A DNA stretch of 23,161 nt. Source: a virus (lineage: Duplodnaviria > Heunggongvirae > Uroviricota > Caudoviricetes). A program made the translations under genes and the position numbers. The stretch lies in IMG/VR virus record IMGVR_UViG_2695420643_000009; one strand, 5' to 3'. How positions within the stretch are numbered: the stretch's first letter is position 1; the number at the start of each line of letters is the position of its first letter. The notes under the pieces are model-generated. The model was not told the DNA's origin and did no database searches. It saw only the letters and a list, made by a program, of their open reading frames with translations. This document shows, piece after piece, positions 1-21,449 of this stretch.

Positions 1-105
1 ACGAACTGCCCGTTGACGGACCTCGGGGGAAAAACGTGTATTTTTAGTCATCCTGTTTACCTCTTTCTCAGGGAGTTTAGTCTCCAGGATTCCCGGGGCG
101 GTTCA
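1..105 (-). mobile_element. IS3-family insertion sequence (IS629/IS3411-like), inner left-end only; transposase orfA starts at 51 and reads leftward out of the window
   Basis: Minus strand reads TGAACCGCCCCGGGAATCCTGGAGACTAAACTCCCTGAGAAAGAGGTAAACAGG-ATG-ACTAAAAATACACGT..., i.e. terminal TG, RBS and an ORF beginning [17 protein letters not shown], which I recognise as the N-terminus of IS3-family OrfA (HTH transposase). Element end placed at 105 from the terminal TGAACC. Near-identical copy in opposite orientation at 23082..23161. Confidence 0.7.
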
Positions 106-122
106 AAGAGGTTATTATCCTG

Positions 123-1546: not shown

Positions 1547-1602
1547 AGGGTTTTATATAAATATGCTCGATATGCTATTAATAATACCTACATAAATAAA
1601 AC

Positions 1603-1625
1603 AACGGGCGTGTTATACGCCCGTT
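1603..1625 (-). terminator. Intrinsic terminator of icd (hairpin plus T-run on the minus strand); copy 2 of the hairpin repeat
   Basis: Stem AACGGGCG/CGCCCGTT with 7-nt loop, followed on the minus strand by GTTTTATTTAT; lies 24 nt downstream of the icd stop codon (1649..1651, minus). Confidence 0.55.
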
Positions 1626-1648
1626 GCAATATTAAACACATGTAGTGA

Positions 1649-1813
1649 TTACATGTTCTTGATGATCGCATCACCAAATTCTGAACATTTCAGCAGTTTA
1701 GCGCCTTCCATCAGACGCTCGAAGTCATAGGTTACGGTCTTCGCATTGATTGCGCCTTCCATACCTTTAACAATCAGGTCTGCGGCTTCAGTCCAGCCCA
1801 TATGGCGTAACAT
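1649..1813 (-). pseudogene. icdC: icdC: detached 3'-terminal 55 codons of isocitrate dehydrogenase (original icd 3' end displaced by prophage integration)
   Basis: Minus strand translates to [54 protein letters not shown], the Icd C-terminus. Homology to icd stops abruptly at 1813 (upstream is LN*), with no N-terminal part of icd present. Confidence 0.9.
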
Positions 1814-2000
1814 TAGTTAGATGACTAAATCGTAACTATTTGACATAGCAACATAATTTTACTAATTTGCATATAACTCATTAGCCCTTAGCATTTCTAT
1901 AACTCATTGATTATAAACATGTGTTTTTGAGTTTTGATAACCATTTTTAGCATAAAAATAGCAGTTAACATTTGCAGAAGTTAAGATCAGAAAAAATTTT

Positions 2001-2014
2001 TACCCTGTAGGGTA
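2001..2014 (-). terminator. Possible weak intrinsic terminator downstream of mcrA
   Basis: Short palindrome TACCCT-AGGGTA followed on the minus strand by AAAATTTTTT; about 33 nt past the mcrA stop. Stem is short, so weak. Confidence 0.3.
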
Positions 2015-2046
2015 TTACGTCTTAAATGTGACTTTAATAAATAATT

Positions 2047-2880
2047 TTATTTCTGTAATCGGTTTATATTAACGTAAAGCATCTCGATTAGTTCTTTTGC
2101 ATTTTTACTATAGTGCAATTCTCTATGGCAATTCGGACAAAGGGCAACACAGTTATCTGTTGTATCAGCACCACCTGAAGACAGGGGAATTACATGATGC
2201 ACTTCCAAATATGGGTTTCCATCATTTAAATAAAACGGAGCATTTTTACCACAGTTTTCACATATACCTTTACTTTGCTGTAAAATCCAAGCTTTTACCA
2301 TCGGGTCTCGGACATAAACTTTTTGTAGTCTTTCTACCTCAACTGGTTTCCTGGAGCCCTCGGGTTGACTCAACGTTTTCTTAATTAATTTACTAACCCT
2401 CATATTCAGAAGCGATTCATCATCTGTAGGCTGTGAAAGCTCTGATAGTTCTCCACGTATTATAGACGCCCAAAAACTGTCACTATAAATACCTGGAACA
2501 TTTATCAATATTCGTTTCGTTCTATTGCCGGAAGGAATTTCCTTTCTCCCCGTACGACTAAAATAAGCCTGATAACCACACATCTTCAAGCGTATATCGC
2601 GGGGGCTATTACCAATCAAAGTAAAATATTCACCAGGATGGATTTTTCTTTCATCCAAAGAATGCATATGTTTTCTGACTGATGATGACGCCAGATATAC
2701 TACGACTTGGGATACACCAGAATCAACCAACCGTTCAATGATATAATCAAGAGCGATATTGTAATCTTTGTTTCTGTCACCCGGCCCCCACGACTCAAGG
2801 ATTAGACCATAAACACCATCCTCTTCACCTATCGAACACTCAGCTTTCAGTTCAATTCCATTGTTATCAAAAACATGCAT
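2047..2880 (-). CDS. mcrA: McrA, 5-methylcytosine-specific restriction endonuclease (HNH nuclease)
   Basis: 277-aa ORF; C-terminal HNH/zinc motif CENCGK...EVHHVIPLSSGGADTTDNCVALCPNCH visible; length and sequence match my recollection of K-12 McrA; position (phage end next to pin) as in e14. Confidence 0.9.
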   Translation of the reverse strand: MHVFDNNGIELKAECSIGEEDGVYGLILESWGPGDRNKDYNIALDYIIERLVDSGVSQVVVYLASSSVRKHMHSLDERKIHPGEYFTLIGNSPRDIRLKMCGYQAYFSRTGRKEIPSGNRTKRILINVPGIYSDSFWASIIRGELSELSQPTDDESLLNMRVSKLIKKTLSQPEGSRKPVEVERLQKVYVRDPMVKAWILQQSKGICENCGKNAPFYLNDGNPYLEVHHVIPLSSGGADTTDNCVALCPNCHRELHYSKNAKELIEMLYVNINRLQK

Positions 2881-2986: not shown

Positions 2987-3541
2987 TTATTTATCCCCTG
3001 CAGGAAACCTCTTATACAAAGTTGACACACCAACATCATAGATAATCGCCACCTTCTGGCGAGGAACTCCTGATGCAATTAATCGTCCGGCCTGTTCCCA
3101 TTGTTCTGGTGTAAGTTTGGGACGACGTCCACCAATTCGTCCCTGTGCGCGAGCAGCTTCCAGTCCAGCTTTTGTTCTTTCAACAATCAGTTCACGCTCC
3201 ATTTCAGCCAGGGCACCCATCACATGAAAGAAAAAGCGCCCCATTGGGGTACTGGTATCAATTGAATCCGTCAGACTACGAAAGTTGATGCCTCGTTCGC
3301 GCAACTCCTCCACCAGCACGACAAGATGCCGCATACTGCGCCCTAGTCGGTCCAGTTTCCAGACCACCAGCGTATCACCTGCCGATAATGTCCTGAGCAG
3401 TTTTTTCAGTCCCGGCCTTTCGGACTTTGTACCGCTTATCTTGTCTTCAAAAATCAGCTCGCATCCTGCACAGTTCAGCGCATTACGTTGTAGATCTGTG
3501 TTCTGGTCATTTGTTGACACACGTACATAGCCAATAAGCAT
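2987..3541 (-). CDS. pinE: Pin DNA invertase (serine recombinase, Gin/Hin/Cin/Pin family)
   Basis: MLIGYVRVSTNDQNTDLQRNAL... with the catalytic-serine motif GYVRVST and a C-terminal HTH; 184 aa from the ATG at 3541, which has a GGGAG RBS 8 nt upstream. The ORF track's longer 196-aa start at 3577 has no RBS. Confidence 0.9.
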   Translation of the reverse strand: MLIGYVRVSTNDQNTDLQRNALNCAGCELIFEDKISGTKSERPGLKKLLRTLSAGDTLVVWKLDRLGRSMRHLVVLVEELRERGINFRSLTDSIDTSTPMGRFFFHVMGALAEMERELIVERTKAGLEAARAQGRIGGRRPKLTPEQWEQAGRLIASGVPRQKVAIIYDVGVSTLYKRFPAGDK

Positions 3542-3567
3542 GGTAGATCTCCCTGACAAAAGCAGGA

Positions 3568-4119
3568 ATGATGCCATTTGCTCGTTATTTCTGCATTTTC
3601 ATAAACGTTGGTTTGGGAGAAGGTTCGGCATTACCCGTTGGCGTGCCTGTTCCGTGGCCTTCCGCCACTCCGCCAACAGGCTGGCTGAAATGCAACGGTG
3701 CCGCTTTTTCTGCTGAAGAATACCCGGAACTGGCAAAGGCTTATCCGACAAATAAATTGCCTGATTTACGTGGTGAGTTTATTCGTGGCTGGGATGACGG
3801 GCGTGGAGTGGATAGCGGTCGTACTTTATTAACGAATCAAGAGCATGCAGTAATTTCTCATAATCATGGAATACCTACAAAAGTGGGGTCAGTTACTAAT
3901 ATCCCGTATGGAATAGAACAGGTTATATCTGATGAAACCATTTTTTCATCAGCAAAAACAGTTGGTGTGGATTACTGGTCTAACAGTGAGCGAGTTTTTA
4001 CTTATACCACTGGTGGAAGAAATGGTGCTGAATCAGTGAGTTCACCTGATGCCTCCTCTTTAATTAAAGAAACCAGACCACGGAACCTGGCATTTGCGTA
4101 TATCGTGAGGGCTGCATAA
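3568..4119 (+). CDS. stfE: Promoterless tail-fibre C-terminal (variable) cassette, stfE-like, duplicate copy A; lacks the constant N-terminal fibre domain
   Basis: 183-aa ORF whose residues from [32 protein letters not shown] to AYIVRAA are identical to the C-terminal 150 aa of the expressed fibre 6024..6824. DNA identity checked at several points. Confidence 0.55.
   Translation: MMPFARYFCIFINVGLGEGSALPVGVPVPWPSATPPTGWLKCNGAAFSAEEYPELAKAYPTNKLPDLRGEFIRGWDDGRGVDSGRTLLTNQEHAVISHNHGIPTKVGSVTNIPYGIEQVISDETIFSSAKTVGVDYWSNSERVFTYTTGGRNGAESVSSPDASSLIKETRPRNLAFAYIVRAA
3596..3621 (+). promoter_or_regulatory. pixL: 26-bp Pin crossover site (TTTTCATAAACG-TT-GGTTTGGGAGAA)
   Basis: Imperfect dyad with the same 12-2-12 architecture as gix (TTCCTGTAAACC-GA-GGTTTTGGATAA, from memory); lies between pin and the cassette; inverted-repeat identity with pixR starts exactly at the central dinucleotide (3608). 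Confidence 0.6.
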
Positions 4120-4550
4120 TGGATTACGCTGTATTAAATAACGAATTTATCGCCACCCAAGCAGGAAATATTACGGTTTATAACTATGATGGTGAAACAC
4201 GGGAATATATTTTCACATCAACTGAATATCTTGCTGTGGGTGTCGGCATTCCGGCATGTTCCTGTTTAGATGCTCCTGGCTCATACAAAACTGGGTATGC
4301 AATCTGCCGTTCTGCAGATTTTAACTCATGGGAATATGTGCCAGACCATCGTGGTGAAATCGTCTTTAGCACAGAAACAGGAGAATCAAAAGAAATCAAA
4401 GCTCCGGGTGATTACCCTGAAAATACAACCACTATCGCCCCTTTATCTCCATACGATAAATGGGATGGTGAGAAATGGGTAACCGATACTGAGGCACAGC
4501 ATAGCGCCGCAGTAGACGCGGCAGAAGCACAGCGCCAGTCACTGATTGAT
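3608..4550. repeat. Inverted repeat copy A (943 bp): stfE variable cassette plus first 144 codons of tfaE
   Basis: Perfect identity to the reverse complement of 5593..6535 wherever I spot-checked (boundaries, 4081..4140 vs 6001..6060, 4201..4260 vs 5881..5940); translated ORFs are identical. Confidence 0.85.
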
Positions 4551-4607
4551 TGGTTTGGGAGAAGCGGCAAAAAGGAATGTGGGCAACGGGGAAAACCAAA
4601 TCCCTGA
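4119..4607 (+). pseudogene. Truncated tail-fibre assembly gene: tfaE N-terminal 144 codons fused to 17 unrelated codons (WFGRSGKKECGQRGKPNP*)
   Basis: Identical to TfaE (5422..6024) through ...AEAQRQSLID, then diverges at 4551, where the sequence becomes the right half of a pix site. Confidence 0.6.
4538..4563 (+). promoter_or_regulatory. pixM: hybrid pix-like site (GTCACTGATTGA-TT-GGTTTGGGAGAA) with a canonical right half and a tfaE-derived left half
   Basis: Right half and centre identical to pixL/pixR; left half is tfaE coding sequence; the inverted-repeat identity ends inside the central dinucleotide (4550/4551). Confidence 0.45.
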
Positions 4608-5004
4608 TATGTCTTTCTGGACGGTTACTGGTGGCAATGGAAATTTTGTGATTCGTCAACCTGACGGGCTAATCACTCAGATGGTTACTGTAAGTATAAG
4701 CGGTCCAGTGGCGATGAATGGAATGACTGATAATGCTTATGCCATTACAGGTTCTAATAAGTCTTATATTGCCACAGCCACATTGCCCTTTGTATTTCCT
4801 AATAAGGTGCTGGGCGTTATCCCTCTGGTATCAACAACAGCCTATGGTGGTGTATCCAGTAATATTACAGGTTCATACGCGACGGCGGTTTGTTCTTTTG
4901 CCGCTGTCCGGGGGAATAATACGATTGTATTCAAAGTCGACAAACCACTGAATGCAGCCTTTCCTTCAGATACCAGCGTCTCAGCGTTAATCATTGGACG
5001 GTAA
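4549..5004 (+). CDS. Silent alternative tail-fibre variable cassette (Sv'); has no start of its own, would be fused in frame to the constant fibre domain after inversion
   Basis: Open frame ...IGLGEAAKRNVGNGENQIPDMSFWTV...VSALIIGR*. The GLGE codons (GGT TTG GGA GAA) are in the same phase as the GLGE at the Sc-Sv junction of the expressed fibre; followed directly by a tail-fibre assembly gene. Confidence 0.6.
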   Translation: MGLGEAAKRNVGNGENQIPDMSFWTVTGGNGNFVIRQPDGLITQMVTVSISGPVAMNGMTDNAYAITGSNKSYIATATLPFVFPNKVLGVIPLVSTTAYGGVSSNITGSYATAVCSFAAVRGNNTIVFKVDKPLNAAFPSDTSVSALIIGR

Positions 5005-5006
5005 TA

Positions 5007-5450
5007 ATGAACTCAGTATTCTTTTCACCCGGAAGTAAAAGTTTTTATCTACAAGAATTGTTTCCAGAATATGAGGATGCGGGAACGCTTCCAGATGATG
5101 TTATTGAAATTACCCGAGAAACATATGAGCAATTTCTTGGGCTGCATCCAGAAGGGAAAGAAATTGGCGCTGACAGTTCAGGACGGCCAATATGGATTAA
5201 TTCCCCACCGCCTTCAAAAGAGGATGAGGTGTTGATGGCTGAAATGAAAAAAATATCTTTGGTTTCAGAAGCCAATACCTACATCAATACCCATCAGTGG
5301 CCTGGCAAAGCTGCTATTGGTCGTCTGAAAGGTAACGAGCTGGAGCAATATAATTTATGGCTGGATTATCTGGACGCACTGGAACTGGTTGATCCCTCCA
5401 GTGCTCCAGATATTGAATGGCCTACGCCTCCGGCAGTTCAGGCCAGATGA
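5007..5450 (+). CDS. Tail-fibre assembly protein (alternative, tfaP-like), partner of the silent Sv' cassette
   Basis: 147-aa ORF MNSVFFSPGSKSFYLQELFPEYEDAG...IEWPTPPAVQAR; resembles the tail-fibre assembly chaperone family, including the C-terminal WP motif region; starts 3 nt after the Sv' stop; converges on tfaE. Confidence 0.7.
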   Translation: MNSVFFSPGSKSFYLQELFPEYEDAGTLPDDVIEITRETYEQFLGLHPEGKEIGADSSGRPIWINSPPPSKEDEVLMAEMKKISLVSEANTYINTHQWPGKAAIGRLKGNELEQYNLWLDYLDALELVDPSSAPDIEWPTPPAVQAR

Positions 5451-6024
5451 CATTCGGCGCGGTGCTGGTATCTGTTGCCGTCACCGCGTCAATGTAATCC
5501 AGCACAGCGTTAAGCTGGGTTGTTTCTGCCTGCGTCAGTTTCCGTCCGGCCTGTAATTTCAGCTGAATCAGACTGATGGAAGCCATTGCAGCATCAATCA
5601 GTGACTGGCGCTGTGCTTCTGCCGCGTCTACTGCGGCGCTATGCTGTGCCTCAGTATCGGTTACCCATTTCTCACCATCCCATTTATCGTATGGAGATAA
5701 AGGGGCGATAGTGGTTGTATTTTCAGGGTAATCACCCGGAGCTTTGATTTCTTTTGATTCTCCTGTTTCTGTGCTAAAGACGATTTCACCACGATGGTCT
5801 GGCACATATTCCCATGAGTTAAAATCTGCAGAACGGCAGATTGCATACCCAGTTTTGTATGAGCCAGGAGCATCTAAACAGGAACATGCCGGAATGCCGA
5901 CACCCACAGCAAGATATTCAGTTGATGTGAAAATATATTCCCGTGTTTCACCATCATAGTTATAAACCGTAATATTTCCTGCTTGGGTGGCGATAAATTC
6001 GTTATTTAATACAGCGTAATCCAT
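5422..6024 (-). CDS. tfaE: Tail-fibre assembly protein TfaE
   Basis: 200-aa [28 protein letters not shown]...VIWPELPEA; start overlaps the fibre stop; matches my recollection of e14 TfaE (200 aa). Confidence 0.85.
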   Translation of the reverse strand: MDYAVLNNEFIATQAGNITVYNYDGETREYIFTSTEYLAVGVGIPACSCLDAPGSYKTGYAICRSADFNSWEYVPDHRGEIVFSTETGESKEIKAPGDYPENTTTIAPLSPYDKWDGEKWVTDTEAQHSAAVDAAEAQRQSLIDAAMASISLIQLKLQAGRKLTQAETTQLNAVLDYIDAVTATDTSTAPNVIWPELPEA

Positions 6025-6535
6025 TATGCAGCCCTCACGATATACGCAAATGCCAGGTTCCGTGGTCTGGTTTCTTTAATTAAAGAGGAGGCATCAGGTG
6101 AACTCACTGATTCAGCACCATTTCTTCCACCAGTGGTATAAGTAAAAACTCGCTCACTGTTAGACCAGTAATCCACACCAACTGTTTTTGCTGATGAAAA
6201 AATGGTTTCATCAGATATAACCTGTTCTATTCCATACGGGATATTAGTAACTGACCCCACTTTTGTAGGTATTCCATGATTATGAGAAATTACTGCATGC
6301 TCTTGATTCGTTAATAAAGTACGACCGCTATCCACTCCACGCCCGTCATCCCAGCCACGAATAAACTCACCACGTAAATCAGGCAATTTATTTGTCGGAT
6401 AAGCCTTTGCCAGTTCCGGGTATTCTTCAGCAGAAAAAGCGGCACCGTTGCATTTCAGCCAGCCTGTTGGCGGAGTGGCGGAAGGCCACGGAACAGGCAC
6501 GCCAACGGGTAATGCCGAACCTTCTCCCAAACCAA
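5593..6535. repeat. Inverted repeat copy B (943 bp): expressed stfE variable region plus tfaE N-terminal part
   Basis: Reverse complement identical to 3608..4550 (see copy A). Confidence 0.85.
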
Positions 6536-6824
6536 GGTTTTCGAGAGCTGTTTTCACCGTGCCATCCGATTTGATATCGCCAAACGGATTCTTGCGGCTT
6601 AACAGCAGCGCACGAAGCGCGGTAAGCAACTGGTCGTGCCGCGCCTTCTCCAGGCTGGCACCGGATGCCTCCACCACGCTGCAGAGTTCTTCCTGCAACA
6701 TATCAAAGTAGTCATCATCCAGATCGGTGGCAGGCGTGCCAGTCTGGGGGTTACCACGGGTAAAACCGTTCTTACCCACGCCGAACTTATCCTTCTGCGC
6801 GGTTTTCGTGTCTATACGATGCAT
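6024..6824 (-). CDS. Side tail-fibre protein: constant N-terminal domain (about 116 aa) fused at a GLGE junction to the stfE-type variable C-terminal domain; currently the expressed fibre
   Basis: 266-aa [24 protein letters not shown]...; GGAG RBS 7 nt upstream; start 3 nt after the ymfQ stop; C-terminal half is duplicated at 3608..4119. Confidence 0.85.
6522..6547 (-). promoter_or_regulatory. pixR: 26-bp Pin crossover site inside the fibre gene (minus strand CTCTCGAAAACC-TT-GGTTTGGGAGAA)
   Basis: Near-palindromic; same right half as pixL but on the opposite strand (inverted orientation, as inversion requires); encodes the ...ENLG-LGE junction of the fibre. Confidence 0.6.
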
Positions 6825-6827
6825 GGA

Positions 6828-7412
6828 TTACTCCGGATATTTAAAAATTACGTAGGTATGCGACGGGCAGAGTTTGTTAAGCACACACTCGACAACGGTG
6901 TCACCCCAGATACGCAGTGCGGAATCACAGGGATCGCCACATGTCATCCAGGTGGTGTTGGTGGTGGTTGGCATGTTGACCTGCCAGTAATACCGCCATT
7001 CCGGCGCATTCACCGCGTCAGTACAGGCCGATGAGCAGGTGAACGTGCTTTTGTCGTATCGCGTGATGGTGGCATCTGGTCTGCCCAGGGCAGCAAGCTG
7101 TGCAAGATAAAAATCCTCGTTGATGCCGCCCGCCAGGTTAACCTTCGCATCCAGCCGTTGCTGACGCTGGCGAAGGGTCTGCGTTCCCGCCGGAATACAT
7201 TCATCCGGCAGACCGCACAGACGCTCCCAGCGGTTTATCAGTTCAGTGGTGGTGCGCGGATCCAGCTCCCGCATCAGGGCATCCGCACGCTGATGAACAC
7301 GGGTTAATGACGGTGCCGCACCGGCAATCGCCGGATCGCTGGCTGACCACGCCGGACCGGGCGGCAACAGTGCCGATAACAGGCGGATGTAATCATCGTT
7401 TGTCACGTCCAT
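6828..7412 (-). CDS. ymfQ: YmfQ-like tail/baseplate protein (Mu gp48-like, DUF2313)
   Basis: 194-aa ORF directly upstream of the fibre gene; same length and position as e14 ymfQ as I recall it. Confidence 0.75.
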
Positions 7413-8461
7413 GAAATCGTCCCCAGTACCGCCAGTTCGTTTTTCGCAATGGAGATATTGTCCACCGGTGCAAGCAACTGATGGCTGTATTCCCCGTTCG
7501 CACCGGAAATCGCCTCACTGATACGCGATACCTTCAGTTCTCCCTGCGGATAACCATCACGCAGCAGGAACGAACGCAACTCCGCGGTAATGGCAGCCCG
7601 TATTTCCGGTGTGTCCGGCGTCACGCGGATATGAAAATCCACTTTATGCGCCACCGGCCTGAATACATACAAATCAGAGCCTGCCACCGGGGCCAGTGGC
7701 TCAATGTGTTGTCTTGCCGCCGTTTCCGTTGATTCTTCCGGAATGGGATTAATCAGGTCACTGCTGGCAATCATCACACCGACAGTTCCCGTTCCCATCC
7801 AGTGACGGTATGTCCATGCGCGGGTAATGCCGGGCACTTCTTTAGCCCAGACGACATAGTCCCCGTCAGCCCCGCCCTGAGGCGTCCAGTAATACCGCTC
7901 AATGACGCGGGCGCGCCACGTTTCCAGCTCTTCAGTATCAAATCCACCTGTCAGGGTATCTGCCACGCCGGAAGACGGCAGACCATTAACCGGCGTGACC
8001 AGGATTAATGACGTACCGTCGTCAGCGTTACCGACCGCGCCTGCACTTGAGCAGGCGATCGGCACGCGCAGGACACCACCGGAGCTGGTTGCATCGGCAG
8101 TTGCCGTGTACTGAACCAGGTCATCGCGCTGAATAACACTCCCGGCGGTCACCTTCAGGCCATCGCTGACACCTTCCCAGCGCATATACCCGCTGGCAGC
8201 CGTGGCCCCCTTGCGCGGACACCGTTTCATCGCAGCATGTCGCGCCAGCCAGGACTCATCGCACAGGTCAGGCAGCATGTTCATTGCCAGATAATCGATG
8301 TACCCGTAAACCGTATGCAGCGCCGCCGCATACACCTTTGCCCGCACGTCTTCATCCATGCGCCGGAGCGTGTCGCTGACGTCCAGCCTGGCGAATAAAT
8401 CGTTACGGAGCATACTGATATTTTCTGCCAGCGTCGGGCGCTGAAATTCACTGTCCGCCAT
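7403..8461 (-). CDS. Baseplate J-like protein (Mu gp47-like; full-length counterpart of the e14 jayE fragment)
   Basis: 352-aa ORF; position between gp46-like and ymfQ-like genes; baseplate-J family resemblance. Confidence 0.8.
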
Positions 8462-8876
8462 GCGTTATCGCACTCCACAGATCATCAAAAGAAATCATTA
8501 CCGGTCCGTCACGACGCCAGAGAGTGATACTGTTACCCAGTTCATTAATCCCGGTGCGGTGGATATCCAGATCAATACGGGACACCACGCCGTCATCAAT
8601 CATCCATTGCAGGCATTCGCGGATATACCCCCTTACCGTCAGCACCAGCTGATTGGTCAGTTTGCTGCGCTGAAGCAGCCACAGTCGGGAGCCGTAACGG
8701 TCATTCTGTACCGCAGGCCAGGTATCCCCCCACCATCCCATCGGGACGTCGGCGTTGTCATCAGGCTCCGCCCGCCGCCAGGTAAACAGGGAAATCACCA
8801 CGGCGCGGGTCAGCGGATCCAGCGGTGCGCTGGCGCAGGTGCGTTTACCGTTCACCGTCAGCCACAGTTCCATCAT
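8448..8876 (-). CDS. Baseplate protein, Mu gp46-like
   Basis: 142-aa ORF with the Trp-rich character of the gp46 family; overlaps both neighbours. Confidence 0.65.
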   Translation of the reverse strand: MMELWLTVNGKRTCASAPLDPLTRAVVISLFTWRRAEPDDNADVPMGWWGDTWPAVQNDRYGSRLWLLQRSKLTNQLVLTVRGYIRECLQWMIDDGVVSRIDLDIHRTGINELGNSITLWRRDGPVMISFDDLWSAITHGGQ

Positions 8877-9421
8877 GCCTCCATCGATTTATCAGGTTTG
8901 TCGGTGTTACTGCCCTGACCGTTCTCTCTGTGACGATGCCCGTTATAGGCAAGCCGCATCGCTGACATGGTGGTGCCGCTGGAGTCGCACAGGTCTTTCA
9001 CCTGTCCTGTCACTTCCAGGTCCATTTCAAAACGTGCTTTAGGTGAATTGCGAAACGTGATCGTTTTACCTGCACCGTCCACCACGATCCCCTCCCGGGT
9101 CAGCGTCACGGACTGCCCCTGATCGTCATAGACAGCCACCTCACCCGTCTGCAGCCCTTTCAGGCGGTAGCGCCGGTCCGACACCGTAACAACCACCGCA
9201 TGAGAACGGTCACCATCCGGAAACAACACCACCGCTTCCGCACCGCTGTTTGCCCTTGCGGTAAAACCGTAGGGTTCAAGATGTTCAACCCCGGCTTTGG
9301 GTTCACCGGCAATCAGGGACACATCCACGGTCTGACATTTCGTGGCGGCACTGATGCTTTTCACCACCGCCCGCCCAATCAGGCCGAGGAGTTGTCGCTG
9401 CATGGCTTCAATCGCCTTCAT
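8873..9421 (-). CDS. Baseplate assembly/spike protein (gpV-like, Mu gp45-like)
   Basis: 182-aa ORF; ATGA overlap with the upstream gene; gpV-family resemblance. Confidence 0.7.
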   Translation of the reverse strand: MKAIEAMQRQLLGLIGRAVVKSISAATKCQTVDVSLIAGEPKAGVEHLEPYGFTARANSGAEAVVLFPDGDRSHAVVVTVSDRRYRLKGLQTGEVAVYDDQGQSVTLTREGIVVDGAGKTITFRNSPKARFEMDLEVTGQVKDLCDSSGTTMSAMRLAYNGHRHRENGQGSNTDKPDKSMEA

Positions 9422-10500
9422 CAGAACGGGTCCTCCTGTACTCTGGCTTTTTTCTTTTTCCGCGCGCCGGGGGCTTCGGGTTCAGGCAGATAAGCATCAG
9501 GTGGGCCGACACGGATTTCCGTCAGGGTGCCATTCTGGTCCTGAGTAAACGTGACTTCCGAGACAAGCAGTTCGGTATTGTCGAAACCACAGACCGGATC
9601 GAAGACAATCACCCGCTGGTTGGGCTGCCACAGCGTACCGTTACCCTGTCGCCAGCCCTGCACCACATAGGTGGTTTCATCCGTCCGCGCCGCCCGTTGT
9701 CGGGCTTCAAAGTCAGCACGCGCAATACAGCCTGCCCCCGTAGCCTGCCCTGTCTGCCTGATATACATCGGACGGTAACGGGCAATAAATGCGTCCTCTG
9801 TGCGGGCCCGCAGCGCAGTTGTGGTGGCCTCACCGAAATCATCGTCGTTTCCGGCACGCTGCCCCGCCACCTGGTAAACAGAAAACCGCTCCCGGATACT
9901 CTTCTCCGTATCGCAGGAAAGGATGTTTTCCCCGAGTACCAGCGCGGTATGTGCCCGCGTTGAGCCAATACCGCCAATCACCAGCCTGCCGTGCGGGTCG
10001 TCATAAGCCAGCGCCTGCTGCTGACCGAGTATTTTGTTAATCACCTCGATCACCGTTTCACCGTGATCAGGCTGGACATCAGGAATAACACCCGACGGCG
10101 CACCGCTGTTCACCACCTCAATGCCGAAGGGCGCAGCAAGCGCCTGCGCAATCTGTACCAGTGATCGTCCGTTAAACTGTGTCGGTTCAGCTGCACAATC
10201 AATCAGGTCAGCGGTCAGACTGCGTCCGGCAATACCGGTGCTGACCGAACGGGCATCGTAACGAACGGGCGTCGCCTCCACCCAGCCGGTGATCACCAGC
10301 TCATCACCAATCAGCACCTCCACTTTTGAACCGTTTTTAATGCGCGGCTGAAGCGTGGTGATACCCTCATCACCCGGCCACTGGCGGGTGATCTCCACAC
10401 TGAAATCCCGCGCCAGTCGTTCAACACCGGCACCGATGCGCACCGATGTCCAGCCATTCCACTCCCGGCCATTTACCCGTAGCGTGACATTGTCGTTCAT
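9421..10500 (-). CDS. Tail/baseplate hub protein (P2 gpD-like, Mu gp44-like)
   Basis: 359-aa ORF; C-terminal Lys-rich tail (ARKKKKARVQEDPF); synteny with the Mu-like tail module. Confidence 0.65.
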   Translation of the reverse strand: MNDNVTLRVNGREWNGWTSVRIGAGVERLARDFSVEITRQWPGDEGITTLQPRIKNGSKVEVLIGDELVITGWVEATPVRYDARSVSTGIAGRSLTADLIDCAAEPTQFNGRSLVQIAQALAAPFGIEVVNSGAPSGVIPDVQPDHGETVIEVINKILGQQQALAYDDPHGRLVIGGIGSTRAHTALVLGENILSCDTEKSIRERFSVYQVAGQRAGNDDDFGEATTTALRARTEDAFIARYRPMYIRQTGQATGAGCIARADFEARQRAARTDETTYVVQGWRQGNGTLWQPNQRVIVFDPVCGFDNTELLVSEVTFTQDQNGTLTEIRVGPPDAYLPEPEAPGARKKKKARVQEDPF

Positions 10501-11825
10501 TGCACTGGCACCTTCAGAGGGATCACCGGCACAAAGCCGGGATGCGTAATGGCATTACGCCGGATAATGTCCGCATCACGCGCCGCGTTATCAAACCAGG
10601 TCGCCGCCAGCACCAGCGCGGGTAAAACCTCATCCGGTGTGCGCTGAATGATCCGTGCAGACTGTTCAAGGCGCGTGTTGATATCCGCATTCAGATCTGC
10701 TTTCACCCGGCGCAGTGCCAGAAACAGCGCATCACTGGTTGTACGGGACAACTCCTTATCAATTGCCGTATTCAGTGTGTCGCGAATGTCAGTCAGTTCT
10801 TCCCACGTTGGCAGGTCAACCGTGTTTTTCACCGCCGGTGCATTGTTCAGTGCCGGATGCGTGACGGAAGGCCAGCCAGTGCTCTGCGCAGGTGTTGTTG
10901 ACTGCCCCACTGCGGCATTCTGCATCACCGCGGAAGTTGTTGGCGCAGGCAATCGGGTGACGGCATACGCCGCTTCGCTGATTGCGGTCGTACGAAGGGT
11001 GCTGGCAACCTCGTTACGCTGATGCGTCGCCGTGGCGGTGGTTTTACTGTCCGTTTTCCAGACGCCGCGCGGTTGCAGATCGCTGCCGAGGCTGACACCG
11101 GAAAGCGTTTTGATCATGGTGACCAGGTCGCTGGCGTTACCATAAAGGCGTTTCCCGGTACGCCACATTTTCTGCATCTGCTCAACGAAATTTTTGCCTG
11201 ACGATGGTGGCGGCAGAAGTACCGAGATATCCCCCTGCAACAGCCTGGCAGCATCCGATACGGCAGAATCCACCACTTTCATCGCATCAGAAACATACCC
11301 AAGCATTGTGCTGGCATTACCGACGACGTCGTTCTGCACAAAATCCGCCACGCCATCGATACTGAAACCGCTGAAGCTGTCACTGATGCAGTCATCCAGT
11401 GCAGAACAGGATGACATCAGCGTCTGCGCCGTCGCCGCACCTGATGTGGGGTAAGAGAGTTCTCCCGCTTCGACAAACTTCAGGTCAAAGCGGACAATAC
11501 GCCCTTCACTCTTCGATGTGCTGACCCGAACCTCTCCGTCAACACAGACTTTCAGCTCACCGTAAGTCGGATGGACAAGCGTGCCGGGACCGGGTTTATT
11601 CAGCGCGTCAATCAGACGATCGCGCTGGTCAAAGCAGTCATCTCCCACCACATAAGCTGTGATGGACGGGCGGAAAGTGATTTTCCCCAGGTCTTCGGTA
11701 TAGGGTTTGTCGCGGTTCGGGTATTCGTGCGTTTCCACACGACGACCGGTTCCCGCACTTTCTTCTTCAACCTTAAACGGCACACCGCGAAATGACGCGT
11801 CCTGAAGTCTGTCTTTCCACGTCAT
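10497..11825 (-). CDS. DNA circularisation protein (Mu gp43-like, N-terminal DNA_circ_N domain)
   Basis: MTWKDRLQDASFRGVPFKVEEESAGTGRRVETHEYPNRDKPYTEDLG... is typical of the family N-terminus. Start taken at the ATG at 11825 (GGAG 6 nt upstream) rather than the RBS-less track start at 11867. Confidence 0.7.
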   Translation of the reverse strand: MTWKDRLQDASFRGVPFKVEEESAGTGRRVETHEYPNRDKPYTEDLGKITFRPSITAYVVGDDCFDQRDRLIDALNKPGPGTLVHPTYGELKVCVDGEVRVSTSKSEGRIVRFDLKFVEAGELSYPTSGAATAQTLMSSCSALDDCISDSFSGFSIDGVADFVQNDVVGNASTMLGYVSDAMKVVDSAVSDAARLLQGDISVLLPPPSSGKNFVEQMQKMWRTGKRLYGNASDLVTMIKTLSGVSLGSDLQPRGVWKTDSKTTATATHQRNEVASTLRTTAISEAAYAVTRLPAPTTSAVMQNAAVGQSTTPAQSTGWPSVTHPALNNAPAVKNTVDLPTWEELTDIRDTLNTAIDKELSRTTSDALFLALRRVKADLNADINTRLEQSARIIQRTPDEVLPALVLAATWFDNAARDADIIRRNAITHPGFVPVIPLKVPVQ

Positions 11826-11885
11826 ATAAACTCCGTACATAAAAAATCCCACCGGAGTGGGACTCATTAACAGATTAATTTTTCA

Positions 11886-13721
11886 TTACCTGCCAAAGCG
11901 CGTATAGCCAACATCATGGCTGACATCAAAACCGCTGGATCGCGTTTCCATAACCCGCATACCCGGAGGCGAATTCACAAAAGAGACCTTGATCTCACCA
12001 TCAACTTTTGGCGCAGAAGCTTTGTTAATCATGAAGGGATTCGGGCCTGTGGCATCGGAGGCGTTGTTTGACTGAGCCGGATCTACCGCCTGATAAGGTG
12101 TGTATCCCCGTGCCGGTATTCCCGTCCCATAAGCATCATAAGCACCCGCGCCCCACTGCGCAGAGTTAATGGCATCGACCGTGTCACCGGAACTGTCGGT
12201 AAACCACTCAATAATTGGCTTCAGCTTGTCCCACATATCCTGAAACCACTTAACAACCGGTCCCCAGTTATTGATTACCATCCCCAGCGGCGACCAGGCA
12301 AAAACCTTCTTCAGAAGTTCCCAGCCAGCCTCAAAATAAGGACCAATGGTTTCCCAGAGCTTCTTGAAATAAGGTCCGACAACATCCCAGTTAGTGATAA
12401 TTAATCCCGCAGCCAGGGCTATCGCCGTCGCAATCATTCCAATCGGCGTCATCGACATGATCCTGCTGACAATACTGATGGCACCGCCAACGCCCATCAA
12501 TCCCAGTTTCAGAATCGCAAGACCGGCAGCAAGCCCGACGACGCCGCGAATAACCCGGGGATTTTCATCCGCAAACTTCGTGAATTTTTCCCCCAACTCC
12601 CCCAGCCATTGCGTGATATTTTTAGCGTCACCAGAAAATGCGCCGCCAATAGCTGCAAGACCGTTAGTTGCGGTCCCCGTCATTGCCTCCCACAGGTTGG
12701 ACAGCGTACCAAGCTGTGCCTGAACACGTTTATTCAGGCTGGCCTGTTTATTCATCTTCTGCTGGATCTGATCGTAACCATCCTTTCCTTTATCGATCAG
12801 AGCATTGACCACCTGAAGGGTTTCGGCATCATCACCAAATATTGCCTTAAGTACACCTGTTCGCTTAACGTCGGTCAGTTTTCGCAGCTTTGCCAGTTGC
12901 TTAAACATGTTATCAAGACCGCCAAAACTCCCTTTGCCGTCAGTAAAATCGAGCTGCACTCCGAGTTTCTGGCGGGCCATGACTTTATTGACGTCCCTGA
13001 TTTTCTTAACGCTTAATCCGGACTGGATAACTTTTCGCAGGGCATTACCTGCCGACTCCCCGTTCATCCCCATCTGATCCATCATGACGCTGATAGGGGC
13101 AAGGCTCTGTGCAGCCTGAAGACCGTCCTTATTCACCATCTTCAGAACAGAACTGGTTTTAGTGAAGAAGGACAACATGTTGGTATCGTCAACGCCCAGA
13201 TAAAACGCCTTCTGGATAGTATCGAACAGCCCCATCATGTCTTCTGAGGCCGTTCCGGTAGCATCCTGCATCTTTGCTGCAAACTCAGCAGCCGCTTCCG
13301 GTGTTTTTTTCAGTTGTACCGCAAGATAAGCTGTCGCTTTACCCACACCACCCAGGATGTTTTCTGCCGGGATCCCCTGACGCACCAGCATCTGCATCAT
13401 GTTCTGGAAATCAGCCGTTGTACCGGGTAGCTGGTTACCCAGGCCAATAGCCAGTTTATTGATGTCCTGAAAGCGCTTTCCAACCTCGCCGTTCGCATCC
13501 ATCATGGCGACTTTCAGCCCGGTAGCGGCGTTTTCCTGATCGGCATAAGATTTCAGGGAAAGCGTCAGCCCCGCTGCCAGTCCGCCACCAAGCGCCAGCC
13601 CACCCTGTGACGCTTCTTCCGCCTGGCGTTTAAATCCCCGGATTTTCTTTTGCATTTTCGACAGCGCGGGAGAAAGCCTGTCGACACCGGTGATCAACGC
13701 CTTAAGCTCAAATTCAGCCAT
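11886..13721 (-). CDS. Tail tape measure protein
   Basis: 611-aa ORF; Ala/Gly-rich helical sequence with hydrophobic segments (GVVGLAAGLAILKLGLMGVGGAISIV...) and a Trp-rich C-terminal region; position after the chaperone pair. Confidence 0.85.
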   Translation of the reverse strand: MAEFELKALITGVDRLSPALSKMQKKIRGFKRQAEEASQGGLALGGGLAAGLTLSLKSYADQENAATGLKVAMMDANGEVGKRFQDINKLAIGLGNQLPGTTADFQNMMQMLVRQGIPAENILGGVGKATAYLAVQLKKTPEAAAEFAAKMQDATGTASEDMMGLFDTIQKAFYLGVDDTNMLSFFTKTSSVLKMVNKDGLQAAQSLAPISVMMDQMGMNGESAGNALRKVIQSGLSVKKIRDVNKVMARQKLGVQLDFTDGKGSFGGLDNMFKQLAKLRKLTDVKRTGVLKAIFGDDAETLQVVNALIDKGKDGYDQIQQKMNKQASLNKRVQAQLGTLSNLWEAMTGTATNGLAAIGGAFSGDAKNITQWLGELGEKFTKFADENPRVIRGVVGLAAGLAILKLGLMGVGGAISIVSRIMSMTPIGMIATAIALAAGLIITNWDVVGPYFKKLWETIGPYFEAGWELLKKVFAWSPLGMVINNWGPVVKWFQDMWDKLKPIIEWFTDSSGDTVDAINSAQWGAGAYDAYGTGIPARGYTPYQAVDPAQSNNASDATGPNPFMINKASAPKVDGEIKVSFVNSPPGMRVMETRSSGFDVSHDVGYTRFGR

Positions 13722-13881
13722 GTGTGCGTTTCTCCTGCTCTATCCTGTTTGCCTGACTGACCAGCAAGGGAATTTCACTGATCGGCATATTCAGCAATTC
13801 GAAGGGATTAATGCGCCAGTAGCTGGCGCAGTCAAAGAAGCGATCAGTGAGGTATTCAGCCGTCAGGCCTGGAGGAAAAAA
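13714..13881 (-). CDS. Frameshift extension (T part) of the tail assembly chaperone; expressed only as a G-T fusion by -1 frameshifting
   Basis: -1 frame relative to 13863..14132; slippery heptamer T-TTT-TTC (plus-strand 13875..13881 GAAAAAA) at the start of the overlap; ORF runs to a stop at 13714 overlapping the tape-measure start. Confidence 0.55.
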   Translation of the reverse strand, partial: FFPPGLTAEYLTDRFFDCASYWRINPFELLNMPISEIPLLVSQANRIEQEKRTHG

Positions 13882-14132
13882 CCAGCCACAAGCCACGCCG
13901 CTGCATTCAGGTCTGCCGGAGACATCTGGTCGACAGAGCTTTGCGGCACTTTCGCCAGCCGCACAATGTATTTCGACACCACATGCGCCAGAAGTCTGAC
14001 GGACTCATCCTGATTCATCTGGTAGGGATACCCCAGCTCGCGGACATCCTTCCCGGTGGGTTCATCAAACTCCAGTACGGAGAGTGTCTCGCCATGAGCA
14101 ATAATCGGTTTCTTTAACTCAAGCTCTTTCAT
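13863..14132 (-). CDS. Tail assembly chaperone (gpG-like)
   Basis: 89-aa ORF between the tail tube and tape measure genes; ATGA overlap with the tube gene; ends ...AGFFLQA* over the slippery site. Confidence 0.7.
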   Translation of the reverse strand: MKELELKKPIIAHGETLSVLEFDEPTGKDVRELGYPYQMNQDESVRLLAHVVSKYIVRLAKVPQSSVDQMSPADLNAAAWLVAGFFLQA

Positions 14133-14488
14133 TACTGGTAATCCCCTTCTTCACCGTGGAACTCAAGATCAACCGTGCCTTCTTCGGCATTATGGTTCGC
14201 TTCGCCGTGCAGCCAGGCAGACGACAATACATAGACCTGACCGTTCGCCAGCTCGGCAGTGATGGTCATCTCAACAGACGAGGTGATTTTGCTCACCGGA
14301 AAATTCTTCGGCACCTTGAAGGTTCCTTTGACATAAGGCGCGCGGTGAGTTTCCTTGCGGTCCACTGAACCATCCAGACCGATGATGTCATCGTTAACCG
14401 TTTTGTTCATGGGCACCTCAATGCCGCCGGTCAGCGATAGCTGCTGACCGTCAATTTTGAAATAACAGGTTCCCCCGATACGGGCCAT
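14132..14488 (-). CDS. Tail tube protein (Mu gpM-like)
   Basis: 118-aa ORF immediately after the sheath gene with ATGA overlap. Confidence 0.7.
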   Translation of the reverse strand: MARIGGTCYFKIDGQQLSLTGGIEVPMNKTVNDDIIGLDGSVDRKETHRAPYVKGTFKVPKNFPVSKITSSVEMTITAELANGQVYVLSSAWLHGEANHNAEEGTVDLEFHGEEGDYQ

Positions 14489-15984
14489 TATGCAGACTCC
14501 TCTGAATACTGAAGACGGAACTGGTTAACCACGGCAAAGACACGCAACTGGTTAACATAGTCAGGCGGGAACAGCGTGTTCAGGCGGTTCGGATCGCTGG
14601 CATCACGCTCCACAATCAGGTACTGCTTGAACAGTTCGTAGTTTTCCACGATCCCCGCACGCTCGAGCTGACGGTAGGTTGCCAGCAGTTCCCCTTTGAT
14701 CACCGCCGGGGTGACAATCGCCTGACCGGGACCAAAGCGGGTACCGTCACTGGCAAGCTTGTGACGCCCGTACTTACTGGTAATGACGGATTTCAGTTTG
14801 CGCAGTACATACGCGCTGGTATGCAGCGTCTCGCTGTCGAGGTAGCTGTTATCCGCAACACCGTAAGCGTTTTTCCTGTACGTGGTGACATCACGCTGAA
14901 TGCGCAGCACCCCGCTTTCGACATACGCCGTTGCCACGCCATGAGACAGCAGGGTCTGTTGTTCGGTCATCGTGAACCGTTTCCCCTTCGGCGCAGGCAG
15001 CATACCCACCAGCTCACCGGTCTGCGTGGGACGTGCCGGATCGTTGCGAATAAACACCGCTGCGCGGGCGGTACGGCTTGCCGCCAGCTCGTCGGCAGGC
15101 GTCTGGGTCTCTTTTTCGTATCCCGCCAGGGTAATGTGCTGCTGGTTAAACTGGTCACCTGCGGTCACCAGTTCTGACAGCGTGCCGATCTTTGCCGTGT
15201 ACACATGACCATACAGCTGACGCGCATAGCTCCAGCGACCGCTGGTATCGTTCATCTCGGTCACCAGCGTGTTAACGGAGGCCGTGTCGTTGAACGGCAG
15301 GCCGATATAATCAAACGGCTCATCCGCCATTGCAGCCACCGCGCCGGTGAGAACAGGAGCGCCCGTTCCGGCGGTACCCGTCGCCACGGCAATCTGTACG
15401 CCCGCTGGCAGCACTTCGCCCCCACCAAAGCCGTAGTAATTGAGGCTGACAGGAATTTCATTCCCGCAAAGCCCCTTATGACGCGCGGTCAGTGTGACCA
15501 CGCCTGCCGAAGATGAGGCAGTAAACGGCAGGGTCGGAACGGCATTGATGGCATCTTTGATACTGCTGGCAATCGTCGCGACGTTATCGCCGTTGGTCAC
15601 CGGTGCCTGCACGCGGGTACGTCCCACATAAACATTCACCGTGCCGGTTTCGGTTGCCGCGCCGGTCACCGTCAGCGTAACTGTTGCCGCCGCGCCCGTG
15701 GATTCAGGAACGGCAATCACATACAGTTCACCAAACGGGTCGGTCTGGCGATAAGCCTCGACCATACGCGCCAGCTGACTTCCCGCACCACAAATCTGGC
15801 GTGCATAGTCTGCCGACGGCATCAGCACCAGACTGTTGGCAACAATCTCTGCACCGTTATTGGCATGACCAATCAGCAGCGATGCTCCGCTGTCCTGTGC
15901 AGTATTCGCAGCCTGGTTATCCATTTCCGCATAAAACAGCGGAACCAGCGTATTCGACGGAATGGTGTTAAAGCTTATCGTCAT
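14488..15984 (-). CDS. Contractile tail sheath protein (Mu gpL-like)
   Basis: 498-aa ORF; size, position and sheath-family resemblance. Confidence 0.85.
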   Translation of the reverse strand: MTISFNTIPSNTLVPLFYAEMDNQAANTAQDSGASLLIGHANNGAEIVANSLVLMPSADYARQICGAGSQLARMVEAYRQTDPFGELYVIAVPESTGAAATVTLTVTGAATETGTVNVYVGRTRVQAPVTNGDNVATIASSIKDAINAVPTLPFTASSSAGVVTLTARHKGLCGNEIPVSLNYYGFGGGEVLPAGVQIAVATGTAGTGAPVLTGAVAAMADEPFDYIGLPFNDTASVNTLVTEMNDTSGRWSYARQLYGHVYTAKIGTLSELVTAGDQFNQQHITLAGYEKETQTPADELAASRTARAAVFIRNDPARPTQTGELVGMLPAPKGKRFTMTEQQTLLSHGVATAYVESGVLRIQRDVTTYRKNAYGVADNSYLDSETLHTSAYVLRKLKSVITSKYGRHKLASDGTRFGPGQAIVTPAVIKGELLATYRQLERAGIVENYELFKQYLIVERDASDPNRLNTLFPPDYVNQLRVFAVVNQFRLQYSEESA

Positions 15985-16138
15985 CGGTGTTCACCTTTTT
16001 ATTCACGCGCCGGATATCACCCGCTGCTTCACGGCGCAGCCAGTAGTTGTTCTCATCAACATTTCGCCCTTCGGCGGGCAAAAGGTCGCCGTGGGCAGGG
16101 TCAGGCACTGACCGCCCTTTAACAGGTTTCACAAACAT
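15968..16138 (-). CDS. Small hypothetical protein (56 aa) preceding the sheath gene; absent from the ORF track because it is under 60 aa
   Basis: ATG at 16138 with GAGGA just upstream; MFVKPVKGRSVPDPAHGDLLPAEGRNVDENNYWLRREAAGDIRRVNKKVNTDDDKL; stop overlaps the sheath start; fills the only gap in the operon. Confidence 0.3.
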   Translation of the reverse strand: MFVKPVKGRSVPDPAHGDLLPAEGRNVDENNYWLRREAAGDIRRVNKKVNTDDDKL

Positions 16139-16146
16139 GATGATCC

Positions 16147-16707
16147 TCAGGAAGGAAGGGGTATTTCGGTGTGATGTTCGATATCGCCGTCAGGCCCGTT
16201 ACCGGGATCGAGATAATCAACATCAATCGCCAGCGTTCGCAGTTCATCCAGACTGTTCAGGTCATCCTGCTGGCGGGTATCGTCTTCGGTCAGCTCGCTG
16301 ATGACCGAAAAATCGAACTGATAAATCAGCTCATGACGATTCAGATCCAGCAGCGTGCCGCCGTCATAGGTAATCGGGTTACCACACGCTTCCGGGTTCC
16401 AGCCCAGCAGAGCCTTAAAGAGCATCTGCCGGACATCGTCCACCACATCATACGAGGCAAACTGACCGCGCTCATCACGCCCGTTACTCAGTATGACAAC
16501 CACGGAGAAGCCCTCTTTCAGCTCCTGCCAGTAGTCGGTCTGGCTTTTGTTTTCTCCCGGAGAGTCATCACCCGGTACCACATATGCCGCCGGGAGCTTC
16601 AGCTTTCCGACCTCCGGCAGATTTTTGAACTGGGCCGCGCCTGCCACCCGGTTTTCAAAATACGGACAGCGGGCACGCAGCGCAGCAATAACAGGAGTCA
16701 GTTTCAT
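16147..16707 (-). CDS. Putative tail terminator / tail completion protein (Gp37-like)
   Basis: 186-aa ORF in the head-to-tail junction block; assignment by position and weak family resemblance only. Confidence 0.4.
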   Translation of the reverse strand: MKLTPVIAALRARCPYFENRVAGAAQFKNLPEVGKLKLPAAYVVPGDDSPGENKSQTDYWQELKEGFSVVVILSNGRDERGQFASYDVVDDVRQMLFKALLGWNPEACGNPITYDGGTLLDLNRHELIYQFDFSVISELTEDDTRQQDDLNSLDELRTLAIDVDYLDPGNGPDGDIEHHTEIPLPS

Positions 16708-17210
16708 CTGTGTCGTCGCTCCGGCTTCAGTGATTTACGCAATTCCCGCGCCAGAAAATAGCGTGTCCAGCTGCGGTTCTTTTCAAGCGTTTCCACCATG
16801 AAGTTATTACGTGGAGCCAGTCGCCAGCCGCTGCCACCGGATGCACCACGATGATGGCTGCGACGACGCTTTGCCCCTCGCCTCACGCCATAGAACAAAA
16901 AAGCCGGATAAAAATCACCGGTGATACGACGGTTTCCCTCTCCATTACGCTGGTTAGGGGCTATACGTGCCATAAAACCAGGGCGATGTTTACTGGCTCT
17001 GGGTACCATGTAACCAATCGAATGAGCCAGGCGTCCGGTCTGATAACCGGGGTTTTCACCCGGTGCCGACCGCGCACGGCGCATCACCAGCCGACGGGCA
17101 TCACGCATATGACGCTGACCAATCGTGACAAACGCCCGCCGGACACGGGCGCGGTTAAAGCGCATCTCCGCAGGCTGCTGAAAATCAACGTGCAAAAAGG
17201 AAGTCGTCAT
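16704..17210 (-). CDS. Putative tail completion protein (HK97 gp10-like)
   Basis: 168-aa Arg-rich ORF; position in the connector block. Confidence 0.4.
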   Translation of the reverse strand: MTTSFLHVDFQQPAEMRFNRARVRRAFVTIGQRHMRDARRLVMRRARSAPGENPGYQTGRLAHSIGYMVPRASKHRPGFMARIAPNQRNGEGNRRITGDFYPAFLFYGVRRGAKRRRSHHRGASGGSGWRLAPRNNFMVETLEKNRSWTRYFLARELRKSLKPERRHR

Positions 17211-17595
17211 TGTTGCCTCCGTGACTCTGCCTACATTCGCCCAGCTCCGTACACTCCAGCAGCAGAAAGCGCCGCGCCCCGTTCAGATCGCGCTGACGTT
17301 TCACCCGGTACACACTGTCACCGCAGACCACCTCATAATCAGCGGTGATCCCCCGGCGGTAACGAATGGTGATGTAATGGGTGATGGCGTCCCCGGTCTG
17401 CGCGGTTTCCTGCCAGGTGGTGGCACTGGTCTGGATAACCTTCGCCCATGTCCGGAACGTAACCGGGTATTGAGGCTCCACGCCAAAGTTATCCGCGGGC
17501 ATATCCACCCGCTGGCGGATCAGGACGCGTTTATTCAGTTCACCGGGGTCCGGCAGAATGTAGGTTGCGCTGGTCTGCGCCTGACGAATTTTCAT
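17185..17595 (-). CDS. Putative head closure / head-tail joining protein
   Basis: 136-aa ORF; position after the gp6-like connector gene. Confidence 0.45.
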   Translation of the reverse strand: MKIRQAQTSATYILPDPGELNKRVLIRQRVDMPADNFGVEPQYPVTFRTWAKVIQTSATTWQETAQTGDAITHYITIRYRRGITADYEVVCGDSVYRVKRQRDLNGARRFLLLECTELGECRQSHGGNNDDFLFAR

Positions 17596-17915
17596 TGCGG
17601 AAAGTACCTGTACGGGCCGACAAGCCAGCCAAAACTCTGCGGCATGTCGAGTTTCTCCACTTCCGTAACCGACGAGCGGTTTTCGTAAAAATGGCTGATA
17701 AGCATCAGCATCCCCAGACGAATATCATCCGGCAGGTGCAGCCCGTCCGGATCGCTGTCCGGAATGGTTTCATCCGGTGCATAGAGCTTCCGGTTCAGAT
17801 ACGTTTCCGTCCGCTTTTGTGCCGCACAGGCCAGCAGTTGCAGATGGCGGTCATCAGCATCGAAATCCTCATCCAGCCGGAGTTGGGCTTTAATCTCTTC
17901 CATTGTCAGAAGCAT
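17592..17915 (-). CDS. Head-tail connector protein (gp6-like)
   Basis: 107-aa acidic ORF MLLTMEEIKAQLRLDEDFDADD...; pattern typical of gp6-like connectors. Confidence 0.55.
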   Translation of the reverse strand: MLLTMEEIKAQLRLDEDFDADDRHLQLLACAAQKRTETYLNRKLYAPDETIPDSDPDGLHLPDDIRLGMLMLISHFYENRSSVTEVEKLDMPQSFGWLVGPYRYFPQ

Positions 17916-17917
17916 AC

Positions 17918-18118
17918 TCAGCCCTCTTTACTGGTCGTGGCTTTTTTCTCTTTTGTCGCTTTACTGCTTTTTGCACTGGTTCCGCGCTCTGCTAACCCGG
18001 CCTGAAGTGCAATCTCCTGCACCCGGGCAGGAAGCGCCCCGTCGTCATACTCACCGGCCCGAATGACCTCAACACGCATACCGTCCGGTGACCATTTCAG
18101 ATCTTGTTTCAGGATCAT
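17918..18118 (-). CDS. Small lysine/serine/threonine-rich hypothetical protein after the capsid gene
   Basis: 66-aa ORF; C-terminus TSAKSSKATKEKKATTSKEG; preceded by a GC hairpin. Confidence 0.4.
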   Translation of the reverse strand: MILKQDLKWSPDGMRVEVIRAGEYDDGALPARVQEIALQAGLAERGTSAKSSKATKEKKATTSKEG

Positions 18119-18138
18119 GATTCTTCACCCGTCAGAAC

Positions 18139-18160
18139 AGGGGCGCGGTTCCGCGCCCCT
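18139..18160 (-). promoter_or_regulatory. GC-rich stem-loop immediately after the major capsid gene (possible attenuator or mRNA-stability element)
   Basis: AGGGGCGCGG-TTC-CGCGCCCCT, a 9-10 bp GC stem; not followed by a U-run on the coding strand. Confidence 0.4.
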
Positions 18161-18166
18161 GAGTGA

Positions 18167-19372: not shown

Positions 19373-19386
19373 CGTATTTCTCCTGA

Positions 19387-21438: not shown

Positions 21439-21449
21439 AATTACCTCAG

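Follow-up and report, generated by a model that had tools for sequence, protein, structure and literature searches.

An icd remnant with its terminator as the host-side half of attR of an e14-like prophage on an IS-bounded contig

We analysed a stretch of viral-record DNA of 23,161 nucleotides (hereafter the window) and found that its positions 1593-1813 make up, with a probability of about 0.95, the host-side half of attR for a lambdoid prophage of e14 type inserted into icd, the isocitrate dehydrogenase gene. A detached icd 3' end lies there with its own terminator, and at its inner edge begins a phage arm of e14 type; no evidence contradicting the attR identification was met. The window corresponds to contig CYFQ01000050.1 in its entirety (23,161 bp), from the draft short-read assembly GCA_001284485.1, which it matched at 99.994% over the 16.8 kb retrieved. 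The attachment of e14 in icd, the icdC remnant and the restoration of icd on excision are already known (1988-89 onward); the primary e14/icd papers are reportedly those of Brody & Hill 1988 and Hill, Gray & Brody 1989, to which PMC13626634 refers. The junction and the phage end next to it comprise the following features.

1591..1627, minus strand: native icd intrinsic terminator (predicted), with an 11-bp stem at 1601-1627 and a U-rich tail from 1591-1600; from the fold, a terminator scan and identity to EC7518
1649..1813, minus strand: icdC, the displaced native icd 3' end, codons 363-416 plus stop; from translation, Pfam, EC7518 identity and K-12 annotation
1803..1813, minus strand: probable strand-exchange core, the first 11 nt of icd homology, ATGTTACGCCA here and ATGCTGCGCCA in K-12
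1814..2046, no strand assigned: phage-derived, AT-rich attR arm, with two dodecamers and an mcrA terminator-like hairpin at 2001-2014
2047..2880, minus strand: mcrA, type IV 5-methylcytosine-dependent HNH endonuclease, cargo of the e14 right end; Pfam HNH, E = 3.5e-15, and RefSeq annotations
2987..3577, minus strand: pinE serine DNA invertase; Pfam Resolvase and HTH_7, and annotation

The sequence-only reading had taken 1649..1813 on the minus strand for the last 55 residues of isocitrate dehydrogenase. The icd identity was borne out by translation, by Pfam and by comparison with an intact gene, while the length was one residue too many: the segment encodes 54 residues and a stop, making 55 codons only when the stop is counted, and these residues are Icd 363-416 of 416. 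Residues 1-50 of the remnant were aligned by the Pfam Iso_dh profile to its positions 301-348 of 348, that is, to its last 48 positions, with a score (E = 1.5e-6, 28.1 bits) barely above the cut-off of 27. Strain EC7518 is without a prophage at icd and so represents the unoccupied site. Its intact icd 3' end was identical to the remnant over all 165 nt and over the next 80 nt as well (245/245, 0 differences), giving a native-type signature, TAATCACTACATGTG..., that runs on into the terminator. What the window holds is thus a detached copy of icd codons 363-416 carrying the native terminator. In K-12, icdC (b4519) is the same 165-nt remnant, followed likewise by the native terminator, iraM and ycgX; it differs from the remnant here at 13 of the 165 nt and in 2 residues, whereas the icdC of strain FWSEC0010 is identical.

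The hairpin and T-run terminator placed by the earlier reading at 1603..1625 had its coordinates right, as both the fold and the terminator scan agreed. The hairpin starts 21 bases past the stop of the remnant; its 11-bp stem, with a core at 1603-1625, includes 7 G-C pairs and is followed by TTTATTTATG on the minus strand. Its folding energy was -27.3 kcal/mol (z = -5.17), and none of 200 shuffled sequences folded as well. The same terminator sequence was found at the intact icd locus of EC7518. A G+C-rich hairpin and a U run past the stop codon are the features of an intrinsic (Rho-independent) terminator, and we predict that the element would act as one. An Rfam search of the window returned no RNA family.

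When the segment 1755-1875 was used as query, matches to intact icd genes ended at query position 59, which is window position 1813. This boundary is the ATG of icd codon 363, and its K-12 counterpart lies at 1211412/1211413: the K-12 annotation gives e14 as 1196209-1211412 and icdC as 1211413-1211577 (165 nt), the latter corresponding exactly to window 1813-1649. The end of icd homology at 1813, with an AT-rich phage end after it, had been noted from the sequence; the intact-icd matches and the K-12 attL and attR alignments agree on it. The alignment with K-12 icd and e14 that had been proposed as a check returned this boundary too and delimited a probable crossover core, the common stretch of K-12 attL and attR up to the first mismatch being ATGCTGCGCCA and nothing more (11 nt). 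In the FWSEC0010 lineage, attL and attR agree over 62 nt and first diverge at position 63. Should the mechanism be shared with K-12, strand exchange would fall within window 1803-1813, a position deduced only from attL/attR identity.

The AT-rich arm beyond the boundary contains TATAACTCATTR twice as direct dodecamers, at 1872-1883 and 1898-1909, which puts them 59 and 85 nt away from the junction. The two copies compare with 0.15 expected, they are kept in K-12 e14, and they may serve as arm-type binding sites for the integrase. The arm belongs to the right end of e14, with mcrA, pinE and stf/tfa, as indicated by K-12 identity and Pfam. Across window 106-3821 identity to K-12 was 96.7%, and the left part of the window corresponds, in reverse orientation, to the K-12 ycgX-ymgL-ymgK-iraM-icdC-mcrA-pinE region. 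K-12 e14 thus uses the same attB, meets icd at the same codon 363 and has the same right arm with mcrA and pinE. The collinearity (mcrA-icdC-iraM-ycgX) and the shared boundary upheld the proposal of an e14-type integration in icd. An attP of e14 type on a free phage was not found in the phage records searched. The only phage record holding both mcrA and the arm, ON470584.1, proved to be an incomplete prophage prediction, wrongly joined and flanked by host sequence, and was not used as attP.

The event that this junction implies was observed at both of its ends in relatives. The closest complete genome, FWSEC0010 (O113:H21, NZ_CP031898), is 97.8% identical over 91% of the window and carries a prophage of about 41 kb between its remnant and an intact icd of 416 codons, with xisE and intE adjoining icd. 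The first 1086 nt of this icd are identical to the unoccupied allele of EC7518. Its last 165 nt differ from that allele at 10 positions, all synonymous, and the 80 nt past the stop, terminator included, differ at 39 positions; these 80 nt match K-12 e14 attL, from which they differ at only 3. In the last 165 nt of icd and the terminator, the phage type reads ...TAATGCCGTAGTTTG...AACGGGAGYGTAACGCTCCCG.... An intact icd with a phage-derived 3' end is present at attL in both FWSEC0010 and K-12, and it is in such relatives only that the phage-supplied replacement is seen. The integrase of FWSEC0010 shares about 94% identity with K-12 IntE but has an internal stop at codon 294 (intE, positions 3982-5109 of the retrieved locus), so this prophage, though complete in other respects, can probably not excise. 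FWSEC0010 and S88, both with full-length e14-like prophages in icd, have the same junction as the window.

Recombination at icd by a tyrosine integrase is established e14 and phage 21 biology. On that model, a phage tyrosine integrase would recombine attP with attB at icd codon 363, and attP would bring in the phage's own copy of the last 54 icd codons and a terminator. Because of this copy, a complete icd would be kept at attL in the lysogen, while the native 54-codon tail and its terminator would stay at attR as the silent remnant icdC. On excision the native tail would be rejoined to icd. The relation between e14, icd and icdC and the restoration of icd by excision have been described (PMC13626634, PMC6379469), and excision in K-12 was reported to regenerate a functional icd (PMC13626634).

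Two other origins of the icd fragment were considered. That it might be an assembly chimera or a chance open reading frame was raised by the source being a draft short-read contig, and by a suspiciously perfect inverted duplication of 948 nt elsewhere on it. The identical 121-nt junction (window 1755-1875) was nevertheless present in 336 of 5,426 complete E. coli genomes, so it is no chimera of this assembly, and the region is collinear with K-12. The refuting outcome that the sequence-only reading had named, a chimeric assembly, is effectively ruled out by these genomes and this collinearity, and we give the idea next to no credence. At least 80% of the window is carried by 103 of the 5,426 genomes. 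The second origin is a prophage of phage 21 type. This lambdoid phage has the same target gene and the same surrogate-icd-3'-end strategy, and phages 21 and e14 are said to share the icd attB (Wang et al. 1997, J Bacteriol); our literature search joining phage 21, e14, icd and integrase found no paper. Fragments of the icd 3' end, 93-97% identical to the remnant, do occur in phage 21 and in lambda-like free phages (ev017, Lambda_2E9 and others). Phage 21 differs, however, in integrase specificity and arms, and the arm at the junction here is the e14 right end, with mcrA and pinE, at 96.7% identity to K-12 e14 over 3.7 kb. The relatives moreover encode IntE and XisE, and FWSEC0010 attL past the icd stop departs from K-12 e14 at only 3/80 nt. 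An origin from phage 21 is therefore very improbable, and we retain an e14-type prophage as the source of the junction.

A third question is whether the junction is genuine but orphaned in the source genome. Copies of an IS3-family element lie at both ends of the contig.

1..105, minus strand: left end of an IS3-family (IS629/IS1203-like) element, 17 nt upstream of the ycgX ATG; contig end
23082..23161, plus strand: left end of an IS3-family (IS629/IS1203-like) element, interrupting terL; contig end

The 23-kb segment is consequently IS-bracketed and the contig breaks are repeat-induced. The two ends are inverted relative to each other and differ at 2/80 nt. The contig holds no integrase, no attL and no intact icd, and since its ends are IS copies, an IS-mediated deletion or inversion could have split attR off from the remainder of the prophage. 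In that case the early region, int/xis and attL would have been removed or moved, with no intact icd at the other end of a contiguous element. In keeping with this, the inverted IS left ends stand at both contig ends and one of them cuts terL at codon 34/35, both insertions are absent from the complete genomes compared, and the truncated terL product has no other record: two versions of it were looked up and neither was on record. A look-up of the portal product found other genomes only; in some of these terL is full length (577 aa), while in others it is called shorter, at 498 aa. Two simple IS insertions would, on the other hand, look no different from this in a short-read assembly. Furthermore, icd is a core metabolic gene and was complete in all 6 loci read (K-12, FWSEC0010, AR_0089, EC7518, ZF8-1 and the ON470584 prophage record), so the source genome is expected to hold, at some place, an intact copy whose 3' end is of phage type. 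We regard an orphaned junction as unlikely, at perhaps one chance in a few, and take the far junction to be probably intact, as in the relatives.

The prophage genes further along the contig are as follows.

3603..6540, no strand assigned: Pin-invertible tail-fibre segment, with a perfect 948-nt inverted duplication
7403..8461, minus strand: Baseplate J/gp47, full length, 352 aa; Pfam Baseplate_J profile 2-255 of 255, same length in FWSEC0010
8191..20848, minus strand: head and tail genes, 12.66 kb, deleted in K-12 e14; from blast against K-12, about 97.7% identical to SfI/SfII
20015..21256, minus strand: portal, full length, 413 aa; Pfam Phage_portal profile 2-321 of 321, same product in many prophages
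21450..23081, minus strand: large terminase, 5'-truncated, residues 35-577 only; BLASTP 540/543 identities to FWSEC0010 terminase residues 35-577

The late region is SfI/SfV-like and far more complete than that of K-12 e14. From about 6.5 kb to 23.08 kb it is about 97.5% identical to the Shigella flexneri serotype-converting phages SfI, SfII, SfIV and SfV, which have a Mu-type contractile tail, an HK97-type head and a lambdoid early region; for SfI and SfII the figure given for the late region is about 97.7%. Unlike the prophage here, these phages are without an icd surrogate, mcrA or a pin module at this end. They integrate at tRNA-thrW and carry gtr genes (PMC3636060); the same SfI paper describes full-length e14-like prophages, for example in E. 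coli S88, and the relationship between SfI and e14. The terminase, portal, protease, capsid, sheath, tube, tape measure and baseplate genes are present at reference length, terL excepted: the IS end at 23082 removes codons 1-34 of its 577, and terS lies off the contig. The contig hence falls short of a complete SfI/SfV-like morphogenesis module, and since the large terminase is cut by the IS, this prophage copy is probably defective too.

K-12 matches the window at 6520-8190 (ymfQ and a jayE fragment) and at 20849-22586 (beeE, ymfR and aaaE) and is without 8191-20848, having lost the 12.66 kb of head and tail genes kept here. Its jayE retains only the part up to window 8190, whereas baseplate J is full length in the window, and its terL is fused to oweE, whereas terL here is cut by an IS. 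The sequence-only reading had set fragments of the terminase, portal and baseplate J genes in K-12 e14 against full-length versions in this copy. That contrast stands for the portal (413 aa) and baseplate J (352 aa) but fails for the large terminase, which lacks codons 1-34. As for pinE, a product of 184 aa is annotated in relatives, so its true start is probably inside the open reading frame at 2987..3577.

The perfect inverted repeat of 948 nt lies at 3603-4550 and 5593-6540, within the Pin-invertible tail-fibre segment. In comparison with an otherwise identical complete genome it is an insertion at the crossover core TTGGTTTGGGAGAAG by pin. Its inner junction (4550/4551) was found in none of the 5,426 complete genomes, and complete genomes with full-length e14-like prophages, such as FWSEC0010, have neither this duplication nor the two IS insertions. 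It may have arisen by duplication very recently, or it may be an artefact of assembling short reads from a flipping segment that was present in both orientations.

On the host side of attR, a decayed copy of the icd terminator region, 43-48 nt long, was noted at 738-780. It is 84% identical to 1598-1640 and stands as a direct repeat 860 nt away, with its hairpin degraded (z = +0.65). Between the copies lies an 860-bp islet (about 781-1597) of about 30% G+C that holds iraM and ymgK. Of the 5,426 complete E. coli genomes, 3,872 (71%) have the islet; from 1,037 (19%) it is precisely absent, and there a single terminator and then ymgL come after icd or icdC. Bounded by terminator repeats and either present or cleanly absent in this way, it places iraM outside e14, in a separate insertion-like islet. 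This location outside attR is contrary to an earlier account, which puts iraM on the e14 prophage (PMC4045071).

An insertion that duplicated the terminator seems likelier as the origin of the islet than a deletion. The icd 3' ends of iraM-positive and iraM-negative strains differ by 3.0-4.8%, and those of two iraM-positive strains by 4.2%. Outside E. coli and Shigella, no IraM relatives with the same context were found, only IraL-like genes. A continuation of the second terminator copy into icd coding sequence, as an older icdC, was also sought and rejected: the local alignment upstream was no better than those of shuffled sequences, 468 of 500 scoring at least as high as the real one. We raise tentatively, as a rather doubtful idea, that the icd 3' end bears stacked relics of more than one insertion, the islet being what is left of an older integrative element whose target was the icd terminator region. 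If so, the RpoS anti-adaptor IraM would have arrived as its cargo.

Two further observations concern this locus in other genomes. E. coli WR3-3 has two IS200C copies there (2135-2843 and 3717-4422 of the retrieved locus, 98.7% identical), in the same position at the foot of both icd-terminator copies, equivalent to window 737-739 and 1598-1601, which suggests that the hairpin foot is a preferred IS200C target. In Shigella flexneri SFBU0723 (CP182557.1), bluR-ycgX-iraM-icdC-mcrA occurs twice, at 15444-23764 and 4671226-4679546, once near each end of the record, perhaps because a circular overlap was left untrimmed in the assembly.

The finding is real but ordinary, and its value lies mostly in annotation: the right label for the region is an attR/icdC junction belonging to an e14-like prophage, and the contig should be marked as bounded by IS copies. 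Polymorphisms at the icd 3' end, including apparent clusters of synonymous SNPs, reflect the presence, absence or excision of prophages (PMC13626634), and for this reason the remnant is not to be taken as an independently functional gene fragment. The junction illustrates cleanly how a phage keeps its target gene whole through a surrogate 3' end, which encodes the same 54 residues as the tail that it displaces.
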